Shown here piece after piece: positions 3,001 to 6,000 of a stretch of 19,134 bases of DNA (positions within the stretch are counted from its first letter, which is position 1; each line of letters starts with the position of its first letter). Made by a program: the position numbers. Source of the stretch: a virus (lineage: Duplodnaviria; Heunggongvirae; Uroviricota; Caudoviricetes); the IMG/VR virus record IMGVR_UViG_2690316344_000004; one strand, 5' to 3'.

Positions 3001-6000
3001 GTATGGGAAAACTATAGGAAATGCCTAATTACTTGTCAATAGGCTATGCCTAATAATTTGGGCGCGACCTAATAGGTGATGGTTTGTGGGAGAGGTAGTA
3101 GGAGTTAACTAACGGGAACTAGGAATTTCCCGTCGGACCATATAAGTTTAAGTTCCTGTCTTGGTGATGTTCTGGCTTTTCCGTTTTGATTCTTGATTTT
3201 TCAGATAGTTAGCTACCTTCATTTCCATTGCGGCAATGTAGGCGCGAACGTCATGATCAACCCAACTAGGCTCCGTAGCATTTCCAGATAAGAGGAAAGC
3301 CACAATTGCTCTTTTTTCATCAGAGGCGGCTTGATAAAGGCTGTTTATGTCTAAAAGTTCACTTTTTGTATCTGAAGTGGATGGGGTTGGTATGGGGTAT
3401 TCGTTAAGCCCCCAATGCTCTGGACCAACCACATCAGAAAAGAAACGCCATAGTTCTGGAAGTTTGTCTTTACTTATCGAACCTTTCTTAATCCAGTCAT
3501 GGATTGATGGTGGTTGGACTTTGAAATGACGTGCGATTTCCGCCTTTGATTTGACGGCTCCTGATGCAATTTTTTTGTTAATGGCCTGCTCTATCGCTCG
3601 GCCTAAGTCTTTACCACTAAGCATTGCTTAATAGTCTCCTATGCGCATCGCGTTAGGCAATCCCTACTCTCGATGTATTAGGCATAGCCTATTGACAATT
3701 GTATTAGGCTAAGCCTAATATTGTTGCGTGTTTTTTGGAGTTCATTCGATGAAAAAAGATAACTATTCATTCAAACGAGCTTGTGCTGTTGTCGGTGGGC
3801 AATCAGCAATGGCTAGGCTTTTAGGTGTATCTCCTCCAAGCGTAAATCAATGGATCAAAGGTGTACGTCAGTTGCCTGCTGAGAGATGTCCTGCGATTGA
3901 ACGAGCAACAAAAGGTGGTGTCCTGTGTGAAGAACTTCGTCCTGATGTTGATTGGACATACTTACGACGCTCGTCATGTTATTCGCAGAATATGTCGATG
4001 AAGCAACCAAATGACGAAAACGATCATACCCGAAGCATCAAGAGGCAAATGATTCATGAAAATCAAACATGAGCACATCCGCATGGCGATGAATGCTTGG
4101 GCATACCCTGATGGTGAGAAAGTTCCTGCAGCTGAAATAGCCCGGACTTATTTCGAACTGGGGATGACGTTCCCTGAACTGTACGACGACAGCCATCCGG
4201 AAGCCCTGGCCCGTAATACACAGAAAATTTTCCGTTGGCTGGATAAAGACACCCCTGATGCTGTTGAAAAAATTCAGGCTCTGTTACCGGCGATCGAAAA
4301 GGCAATGCCGCCTCTGCTGGTGGCCCGTATGCGCAGTCACAGCTCTGAGTATTACCGGGAGATTGTCGAACGGCGGGATCGGCTGGTGAAGGATGTCGAC
4401 GATTTTGTTGCGTCAGCGGTTGTTTTGTATGACCAGATGAATCGCGGCGGCCCGGCAGGGAATGCTGTGGTGATGCACTAAAAGCACGGTGTTCGGGGGT
4501 TTTATGAGCAGCAAGCTTCATGGTCTTGTCTGGGAAGGGTGCGCCTTCACCGGCATGATCTTATCCAGGGTGGCGGTTATGGCCCGTCTTGCAGACTACA
4601 GCAATGACGAGGGCGTGTCATGGCCTGCCATTGAAACTATCCGGCGTCAGATCGGTGCAAGAAGTGAATCCACAGTGAAATCGGCTATTGCAGAACTGGC
4701 GAAAGAGGGCTGGCTGACGAAGGAAGAGCGTAAGGTCGGTGGGCGTAATGTAAGCAATATCTATCGACTTAATGTGGAAAAACTCGAAGCAGCTGCGGCG
4801 GCGGCGCGTGAGTCATATAAACCGAAAAGAAAAATTAGCCCGGCAAAAAATGACCCGTTAACAGTTGACCCGTCAAATATTGACCCCTCAACGGTTGACC
4901 CGTCAAATTTTGATGGATCAACTGTTGATAAAAAACTGCCGATTAGGGGGGCGATGATTGACCCCGATCCGTCAGTATTAAAACCTGATCCGTCAGATAA
5001 AAGATCTTCTTGTCCGGACGCTTCGCAACCGGACCCGCAGACGGCTGAACAGGATTTTTTAACCCGACACCCTGACGCGGTTGTGTTCAGTGCGAAAAAA
5101 CGCCAGTGGGGAAGTCAGGAAGATTTGGTGTGCGCACAGTGGATCTGGGGACGAATCGTGAGTCTTTACGAGCAGGCGGCCAGCTATGATGGCGAGATCA
5201 CTAGACCGAAAGAACCCAACTGGACAGCATGGGCCAATGACGTTCGCACAATGCGGATGCTGGATGGCAGAACTCACAGACAAATTTGTGAAATGTTTGG
5301 GCGTCTCCAGCGGGATTCGTTCTGGGTAAAAAACATCATGAGTCCGGCAAAACTCCGGGAAAAATGGGATGAACTGGTTATCCGCCTGGGGCGTTCGCCT
5401 GCGCAGCGTTGCGTGAATCACATTTCTGAACCGGACACTGAAATACCGCCGGGATTCAGGGGGTGACGTGTCATGAAAAACATTGCGGCAGTTGGGGTTC
5501 TTGAACGTATTCGCAGACTTGCACCACAGGGGTCGGTTCCACCGTACCGGACGGTGGAGGAGTGGCGGGAATGGCAACTTGCTGAAGGACGAAAACGCAG
5601 CGAGGAGATTAACCGCCAGAATCGCCAGTTGCGGGTGGAAAAAATCCTGAATCGTTCGGGCATCCAGCCTCTGCACAGCAAATGCTCGTTTGCAAATTAT
5701 CAGGTGCAGAACGACGGGCAAAAATACGCGCTGAGCCAGGCCAAATCCATAGCTGACGAACTGATGACCGGGTGCACGAATTTTGTGTTCAGCAGTAAAA
5801 CCGGCACCGGGAAAAATCACCTTGCAGCGGCGATGGGCAACCGGCTGATGGTGAAGGGGCGCAGCGTGATTATCGTCACCGTGTCTGACGTCATGAGCGT
5901 GTTGCATGACAGCTACGACAACGGCAAATCCGGGGAAAAATTTTTACAGGAGCTTTGCGGGGTTGATTTGCTGGTCCTGGATGAAATAGGCGTTCAGCGG

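Follow-up and report, generated by a model that had tools for sequence, protein, structure and literature searches.

In phages lambda, 434, 21, phi80 and 82, the N-terminal half of the O protein and the iterons form a single allele-specific module. In lambda and in Shiga toxin (Stx) phages, the replication origin lies mid-gene in O and comprises iterons and an AT-rich tract (PMC7466680). The DNA analyzed here, a 19,134-nucleotide Caudoviricetes sequence (IMG/VR record IMGVR_UViG_2690316344_000004; the whole stretch is called the window), covers the early-right and late-control regions of a lambdoid prophage of Escherichia coli that resembles Rac. Within it, a tract at about positions 4849-5034 is probably the cis-acting replication origin of this prophage, located where its own initiator gene encodes a linker.

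The predicted initiator belongs to the HTH_36 family. HTH_36 proteins are found beside cI in several Eru types of Stx phages, and the paper that classifies the genes of these phages states that nothing is known about their replication proteins (PMC8951638). The terms 'iteron' and 'origin of replication' are absent from the main text of that paper.

Iteron array and initiator gene

The array consists of contiguous units with a period of 15 base pairs (bp) at 4849-4938. It is in frame within the initiator open reading frame (ORF, 4504-5466) and encodes the peptide NDPLT VDPSN IDPST VDPSN FDGST VDKKL. The gene, its domains and the elements of the tract are as follows (aa, amino acids; pLDDT, predicted local distance difference test score).

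4504..5466, plus strand: replication initiator gene, 320 aa plus stop, ATG at 4504 (ORF; Pfam HTH_36; PHROG 391)
4504..4818, plus strand: N-terminal winged-helix DNA-binding domain, aa 1-105 (AlphaFold2 model; Foldseek)
4828..5028, plus strand: predicted disordered linker, aa 109-175 (pLDDT <50)
4849..4908, unstranded: four well-conserved 15-bp iterons, dyad core TTGAC-NN-GTCAA (motif scan; family-wide symmetric information profile)
4849: unit 1, AAT GAC CCG TTA ACA
4864: unit 2, GTT GAC CCG TCA AAT
4879: unit 3, ATT GAC CCC TCA ACG
4894: unit 4, GTT GAC CCG TCA AAT
4909..4938, unstranded: unit 5, TGATGGATCAA (inverted/degenerate, holds GATC), and vestigial unit 6, GTTGATAAAAAACTG (minus-strand match at 4910-4920 with 2 mismatches)
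4909: unit 5, TTT GAT GGA TCA ACT
4924: unit 6, GTT GAT AAA AAA CTG
4957..4998, unstranded: second block, ATTGACCCCGATCCGTCAG (4957-4975) and CCTGATCCGTCAGAT (4984-4998), two GATCCGTCA sites 21 bp apart with a GATC in each (repeat search; lineage comparison; synonymous identity 0.86)
4999..5034, unstranded: conserved tail of the tract, AAAAGATCTTCTTGTCCGGACGCTTCGCAACCGGAC, with the fourth GATC and the boundary of the N-module (synonymous identity; DNA similarity to phages with another N-domain)
5044..5394, plus strand: C-terminal helical domain, aa 181-297, exchangeable among alleles (AlphaFold2; allele comparison)
5404..5463, plus strand: C-terminal protein tail ..VNHISEPDTEIPPGFRG, resembling the C-terminal tail of host DnaT (PDB 2ru8, 6aep, 9zbt; NCBIfam DnaT profile positions 159-179)

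An earlier note, made by reading this sequence, had described five tandem 15-bp repeats inside an O-like gene, encoding a pentapeptide repeat and followed by an A-rich stretch. The periodicity is borne out by a formal repeat search: Tandem Repeats Finder places an array at 4839-4928, with a period of 30 in 2.5-3.0 copies (scores 101 and 96) and a period of 15 in 5 copies (score 66). Self-identity at a lag of 15 reaches 43/60 at position 4830, against 28 for the next best position anywhere in the window, and shuffling the codons of the gene 2000 times gave at most 33. The location inside the initiator gene and the in-frame pentapeptide are likewise confirmed. The copies are not five equal ones, however: the array has four good units, one degenerate and inverted unit, and one vestigial unit. 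With at most one mismatch, the 11-mer TGACCCGTCAA occurs in the 19-kb window only at 4851, 4866, 4881 and 4896; in unit 5 the minus strand matches it better than the plus strand does. No other copy of the iteron motif and no other repeat cluster was found in the window. The A-rich stretch reduces to a single A6 run at 4930-4935, and no 40-bp segment nearby is among the 15 least stable in the window. Finally, the extent of 4851-4940 given in that note covers the array and stops too early, since the constrained element continues for about 100 bp past this end, to ~5034, and includes conserved GATC sites.

The six units, of which four are good and two degenerate, are direct repeats with dyad symmetry inside the unit. 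Taken together, the computed origin features are a winged helix, a disordered linker and a C-domain in the protein, and 4-6 contiguous 15-bp dyad units (TTGACNNGTCAA in the window) followed by two related GATCCGTCA sites in the DNA.

Residues 25-71 of the initiator match Pfam HTH_36 with 27.9 bits (cut-off 25; E 2e-6), and the full-length protein matches PHROG 391, the family 'replication initiation O-like' (E 2e-115). In a Pfam scan at E <= 0.01 there was no match to Phage_rep_O, which marks homology to lambda O; apart from HTH_36, the only hit was to DnaD_N, a weak one in the N-domain that falls short of the Pfam cut-off (E 0.005). There was also no Pfam match to a Rep_3-type tandem winged-helix protein. 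The C-domain matches PHROG families described as 'DnaD-like helicase loader' and 'replisome organizer'. In the AlphaFold2 model, built with a 25-sequence alignment, the N-domain comprises helices at aa 3-15, 20-31, 43-50 and 55-67 and a beta wing at aa 71-89 (pLDDT 70-89). A Foldseek search with it gave dimeric winged-helix proteins of the MarR/ArsR type as the top matches, at weak scores (E about 3e-3; target template modeling score 0.55-0.66). Proteins of this type bind palindromes. The repeats are placed between the DNA-binding N-domain (aa 1-105) and the C-terminal domain (aa 181-297), in the part of the gene that encodes the linker (aa 109-175).

With its tail (..SEPDTEIPPGFRG) the protein matches the C-terminal ~20 residues of E. 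coli DnaT and of the K-12 Rac protein YdaU, and the DnaT match to this tail was the only one returned by a sequence search of the PDB with the initiator. Relatives in which a lambda-P-like loader gene comes next end in ..W(N)xPEGWExxL instead. Tail type seems to track the helicase-loading partner and, because it differs with loader type, the tail may be a partner-specific contact. Of 5426 complete E. coli genomes, 1514 have the gene (>=80% covered), under no more specific a name than 'helix-turn-helix domain-containing protein'; the misleading name 'primosomal protein I', which is also in use, is explained by the DnaT-like tail.

DNA-level and peptide-level constraint

Homologous genes were compared from phages SfIV, PhiR49_1, Klebsiella phage 1 LV-2017, LLS, phiNP and phiP27, from one Erwinia genome (the only one used among 11 loci from a scan of genome contigs), and from eight database proteins with their contigs. 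A scan of IMG/VR with the N-domain alignment gave 80 further loci, which added no diversity because they are 98-100% identical over the matched aa 1-185 segment. Unit statistics cover 56 distinct units from 12 lineages, the codon alignment covers nine lineages, and the GATC comparison covers 15. All homologues collected share a common layout, in which an HTH_36 domain is followed by 2-7 pentapeptide units with a 15-bp period and then by a 'DPSV...DPSD' block.

Across the 12 diverged lineages, the conserved unit positions form the dyad T-GA-N4-TCA-A. Position 3, a third codon position, is T in 51/56 units (91%), but the residue encoded by this first codon varies among I, S, V, F and N. Position 12, also a third codon position, is A in 50/56 units, and the other information peaks lie at positions 4-5 (GA), 10-12 (TCA) and 13 (A). 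The information profile is mirror-symmetric about the unit center (T3/A12, G4/C11, A5/T10), which is what would be expected of a dyad protein-binding site. Units that differ at uninformative positions nevertheless share the dyad positions, even where the N-domains are only ~46-57% identical.

Codon choice provides further evidence. Serine at codon 4 of the unit is encoded by TCA in 38/42 cases (90%), against 21/229 (9%) of the serine codons elsewhere in the same genes, and replacements of this serine by proline or leucine retain xCA or TTA. When two lineages encode the same residue, they use the identical codon at a frequency of 0.40 in the N-domain, 0.47 in the C-domain, 0.74 in the array and 0.86 in the following block (~4951-5043). 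Windowed synonymous identity is still 0.85-0.73 at 4999..5034 and drops to ~0.49 after ~5035. The constrained DNA tract (~4849-5034) is co-extensive with the linker of pLDDT <50, and because it falls in this linker, the peptide is unlikely to need a fixed sequence. Selection on the DNA of the array, and not on the peptide, is thus strongly argued by these results together.

The most constrained DNA lies beyond the array. After CCTGATCCGTCAGAT, a conserved run, AGATCTTCTTGTCCGGACGCTTCGCAACCGGAC, extends to 5034, and TCT TGT CCG in this tail is retained as DNA across lineages. Similarity to phages with another N-domain begins at query base 511, equivalent to about position 4999 of the window. 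In the 15 lineages, Asp-Pro is encoded by GAC CCN throughout the array and by GAT CCN in the second block (33/33). Because the second-block codons are always GAT CCN, each lineage has 2-3 GATC sites there, 12-24 bp apart (15/15 lineages). In the window these are at 4966, 4987 and 5003, with equivalents in loci L002, L004, L009, L010, L014, L105-L112 and L115. With four GATC sites in 87 bp, the window has its tightest cluster here, a conserved one such as is found in origins controlled by Dam and SeqA; both oriC and P1 oriR contain GATC sites that are under this control. The GATCCGTCA pair persists in lineages with different flanks on both sides, including four kinds of C-domain. The invariant choice of GAT CCN suggests either Dam/SeqA control or that GATCCGTCA forms a distinct class of initiator site.

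A separate observation concerns methyltransferase genes. In many relatives (loci L004, L005, L006, L008, L009, L010, L111, L112 and L114), a Dam-type adenine methyltransferase gene lies directly after the initiator gene or within ~1 kb of it. The window has an N6_N4 DNA methylase gene farther downstream (12639-13697). Such genes near the initiator may be linked to the conserved GATC sites of the putative origin.

Modular inheritance, proposed mechanism and rival explanations

The N-terminal segment (aa 1-185) has 421 homologues. Nearly all of the best 120 of the 421 carry HTH_36, and every inspected member of these 120 keeps both the array and the DPS..DPS block. At least four kinds of C-domain are fused to this N-domain (the window type, Phg_2220_C, DnaT-like and others), and the next downstream gene also varies: it may encode a DnaC-like protein, a lambda-P-like protein, a Toprim/AAA_25 primase-helicase, or DnaC with a helicase (phiP27), or there may be no loader gene. 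From these comparisons, the array is inherited together with the N-terminal winged-helix domain. Phage mEp460_ev081 has the C-domain of the window at 86% DNA identity from query base 511 on, joined to an unrelated N-domain. At the equivalent place (locus L003, 1699-1870) it carries five 23-24-bp repeats with the core GGTCAAAATGA, followed by three 12-bp repeats, ACAGAGAATACA. N-domain and repeat sequence therefore co-vary among alleles with a common C-domain, and the mEp460_ev081 array is a candidate for a second, undescribed type of origin. Among close alleles, copy number changes in 15-bp steps, giving proteins of 320, 315, 310 and 305 aa.

The family extends to many phages of Shigella, Klebsiella, Salmonella, Citrobacter and Erwinia. 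It also includes gene L17 of the Stx2e phage phiP27, annotated 'hypothetical; unknown' (AJ298298, 10334-11260; locus L115, 2501-3427), which carries two arrays, one of 15 bp (TGAACCGTCAAAATC x 3.3) and one of 24 bp that contains GATCC, and is followed by genes for a DnaC-like protein and a helicase. Phage phi80, whose origin was reportedly sequenced classically, is not among the best 60 of 134 phage records with this N-domain. A circular PLSDB entry of 15,977 bp (NZ_CP148542.1), which consists only of the segment from immunity through replication and Q to lysis and has no plasmid replicon typed, was considered as a natural mini-replicon like lambda-dv. It was not counted, as its initiator and ydaT genes are frameshifted, which also makes the assembly look noisy.

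The neighboring genes that enter into the proposed mechanism are listed here.

3148..3624, minus strand: RacR-type repressor, immunity region (NCBIfam TransRepsrRacR equivalog, E 9e-74)
3692..3721, plus strand: pR-like promoter (consensus scan only: TTGACA-18-TAATAT, 10/12 matches)
3728..4481, plus strand: YdaS (Cro-like) and YdaT (CII-like) genes, 5' of the initiator gene (Pfam YdaS_toxin, YdaT_toxin; PHROG 35, 163)
5473..6219, plus strand: DnaC/IstB-like helicase loader (Pfam IstB_IS21; PHROG 50; NCBIfam PRK12377, E 1e-151, and DnaC, E 2.5e-88)

Upon derepression, transcription from the pR-like promoter would proceed through ydaS, ydaT, the initiator gene and the loader gene, crossing the array on the way, and the initiator would be made. 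Dimers of its winged-helix N-domain would then fill the dyad iterons and the GATCCGTCA sites, forming a complex like the O-some. On supercoiled DNA, the duplex could open in the adjacent, moderately AT-rich, GATC-containing segment at ~4970-5010. The C-domain and the DnaT-like tail would recruit host DnaB through the phage DnaC-like loader, presumed to be the partner of the initiator, and theta replication would follow. Firing may be modulated by Dam methylation or SeqA through the invariant GATC sites, or the initiator may read GATCCGTCA as a special site. A design that departs from lambda in its mechanism has a small but real chance of being correct. The TGA/TCA half-sites alternate in orientation every 7-8 bp along a continuous track, and the initiator might form a filament on them in place of discrete wrapped dimers, without an AT-rich element and with opening or firing gated by the invariant two or three Dam sites (GATCCGTCA) of the conserved block next to the array; recruitment may in that case use the tail as a mimic of DnaT.

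Several points weigh against an origin at this tract. Initiator binding, unwinding and origin activity are all inferred from sequence. A nearest-neighbor stability profile of 40-mers over the whole window showed no clear AT-rich unwinding element near the array: the least stable 40-mers there have z = 1.5-1.85 (4810-49, 4900-39 and 4970-5009), and none of them ranks with the window's 15 least stable. DnaA boxes show no enrichment (47 against 36.6 expected), and the clustering of GATC sites is marginal when the window is taken alone (P about 0.05). The DNA identity of the second block could stem in part from recombination at the module junction. Lastly, the literature searched, which did not extend to subscription journals, contained no paper that maps an origin for this initiator family, although an older phage-genome description may exist.

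The repeats might instead be initiator-binding sites that serve autoregulation, titration, copy control or a transcription roadblock, with unwinding and helicase loading at some other, unrecognised site. Such a role fits the lack of an AT-rich unwinding element next to the array and the course of transcription, which would cross the array from the pR-like promoter, and plasmid iterons are known to serve both initiation and control. It is nonetheless unlikely, as the window offers no copy of the motif outside the array and no other repeat cluster, the constrained tract runs ~100 bp beyond the array as an origin would, and the array moves with the DNA-binding domain through many otherwise unrelated genomic contexts. 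In addition, iterons within the gene are the origin in the analogous lambda and Stx systems (PMC7466680). Selection on the peptide would make the DNA period a shadow of a DPSxx linker with a protein function, whether spacing, protease sensitivity or partner binding. The array is indeed in frame with a period divisible by three, and D-x-S occurs often. This account is scarcely credible given that two third codon positions are among the best conserved, that the first residue is free while its last base is not, that TCA and its xCA or TTA replacements are so strongly preferred, and that synonymous identity approaches twice the value of the folded domains in a region predicted to be disordered.

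Shared history could also produce similarity at the DNA level: slippage-prone repeats and a second block that acts as a junction 'linker' might have been homogenised by lambdoid recombination. The tract does lie exactly at the boundary between N-module and C-module, where similarity to phages with another N-domain starts (~4999), and copy number varies among alleles. Even so, dyad positions are kept while the other unit positions vary between diverged N-domains, the GATCCGTCA pair persists with both flanks different and with four kinds of C-domain, and shared ancestry alone does not predict a strict, position-specific use of GAC or GAT, which leaves this explanation with hardly any probability. 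The array is, moreover, a long imperfect palindrome, and the functional feature could be a cruciform, a hairpin in single-stranded DNA (such as a signal for primosome assembly or single-strand initiation) or a structure in the mRNA. As single-stranded DNA, 4845-4940 folds at -16.9 kcal/mol (z = -5.65), and the arrays of six other lineages give z of -3.3 to -5.3 against dinucleotide shuffles. When the order of units was permuted with the TGA/TCA half-sites kept, 14-93% of trials gave structures at least as stable; when the central four bases were scrambled, 4-72% did so in 11/12 lineages, the sole exception being P0048 (0.3%). Because these controls fold as well as the native arrays, the hairpin potential is mostly a by-product of the palindromic half-sites, and the extended hairpin or cruciform was rejected as an independent feature. 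The sequence itself is also conserved, and not the pairing alone. A structural signal is thus very improbable. No RNA family in Rfam overlaps the constrained tract.

An origin with initiator-binding sites inside the initiator gene, in a lambda-like arrangement, therefore remains the probable reading, as the earlier note had proposed. It is favored by the DNA-level constraint, the disordered linker, co-inheritance with the N-domain and the presence of different repeats with another N-domain. The comparison with gene O in that note holds for the arrangement and for the O-like PHROG 391 match but not for descent, as the protein belongs to HTH_36, has no Phage_rep_O match and is not a homologue of lambda O.

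If correct, this reading provides a concrete origin and a basis of initiator specificity for poorly studied modules that do not use lambda O, including those of Stx-phage relatives whose replication affects toxin dose. Origin function would account for the persistence of a pentapeptide repeat in a disordered linker, and the locus would be a clean case of DNA-level selection overriding codon choice within a gene. The conserved Dam sites are a possible control point. The initiator family is very common yet unannotated, being present in over a quarter of complete E. coli genomes.

Prophage context and known systems

After the loader gene, the window encodes DUF1627, DUF977, NUDIX, HAD, DUF968 and RusA proteins and a Q-like antiterminator; then come the DNA methylase, three tRNAs, two paralogous SASA esterases and a lysozyme. 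A near-identical copy of the prophage in a complete genome adjoins potC and has integrase, excisionase, exonuclease and dicB on its left. In many relatives (L105-L107, L109, L111 and L114), a small DUF4222 ORF (57-81 aa) overlaps the initiator start codon by 4 bp; in the window, the YdaT gene holds this upstream position. The genes for the NUDIX hydrolase (7617-8255) and the HAD-family hydrolase (8279-8923) are adjacent in the nin-like region, and the pair is an unusual cargo for a lambdoid early-right operon. The three tRNA genes (Met-CAT, Arg-TCG and Arg-TCT) lie 3' of the Q-like gene, which is the stx site of Stx phages; no stx gene is present in the window. The two tandem DUF1737/SASA genes (NanS-p-like sialate esterases) are at 14477-15754 and 15691-17544, and an identical 16-nucleotide tandem repeat at 15480 and 16685 points to a duplication of ~1.2 kb in this region. 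Rfam matches in the window comprise DicF, sok and STnc100 RNAs, with RNA or tRNA features at 1752-1803 (minus strand), 9319-9493, 14064-14254 and 13738-13987 (all plus strand).

Published work on the origin of Rac, oriJ, was considered as a guide and set aside. It does not transfer, because YdaU of K-12 Rac belongs to DUF1376 and has only its last ~19 residues in common with the initiator, and two papers that mention oriJ give no sequence-level map. A literal search of the literature for the iteron sequence returned unrelated primers only.

Plasmid theta replicons with iterons (pPS10, F, R6K and the P1 oriR Rep) resemble the locus in pairing a winged-helix initiator with tandem direct repeats, to which binding is here predicted. 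P1 oriR and oriC also have GATC sites inside the origin, as the candidate origin does. In contrast to those plasmids, the repeats are intragenic rather than intergenic and 15 bp long rather than 17-22 bp, and there is no Rep_3 domain, no significant DnaA box and no AT-rich element. The intragenic 15-bp repeats and the lack of a Rep_3 match ruled out a Rep_3-type iteron replicon. Replisome organisers of Gram-positive phages (SPP1 G38P) and DnaD-like proteins share weak DnaD_N and PHROG similarities with the initiator, and the putative origin would be inside the gene as it is there; a review of the SPP1 genome reportedly describes this as a known arrangement. The similarities fall short of curated thresholds, and the two groups differ in host range and in repeat sequences. 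The replication modules of Eru phages belong to the same poorly characterised class of E. coli prophage modules, with phiP27 L17 as a member of the family.

The closest parallels are with lambda, lambdoid and Stx origins. As there, the putative origin is inside the initiator gene, between the parts that encode the DNA-binding N-domain and the loader-recruiting C-domain, and, as in ori-lambda, it comprises several direct repeats with internal dyad symmetry. Allelic changes in copy number, here in 15-bp steps, alter residues of a non-essential linker, which parallels the four versus six iterons of lambda and Stx phages (PMC7466680). As in lambda, N-domain and repeats move between alleles as a single specificity module, and some relatives use a lambda-P-type loader. 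The differences are equally clear. The units are 15 bp and contiguous, whereas lambda has iterons of ~19 bp with spacers (period ~20-24 bp), and a conserved block with invariant GATC sites follows the array. A 40-bp AT-rich tract is absent. The initiator is an HTH_36 protein and not an O homologue, its loader is DnaC-like, and its tail is DnaT-like. Two features stand out: the invariant GATC block, which has no AT-rich region with it, and the tail resembling that of DnaT. The general view of lambdoid origin organisation is unchanged. An origin inside its initiator gene is a known kind, predicted here in an uncharacterised initiator family. By this comparison, the predicted element works like ori-lambda but stands, in the strict sense, outside the lambda O/ori family.

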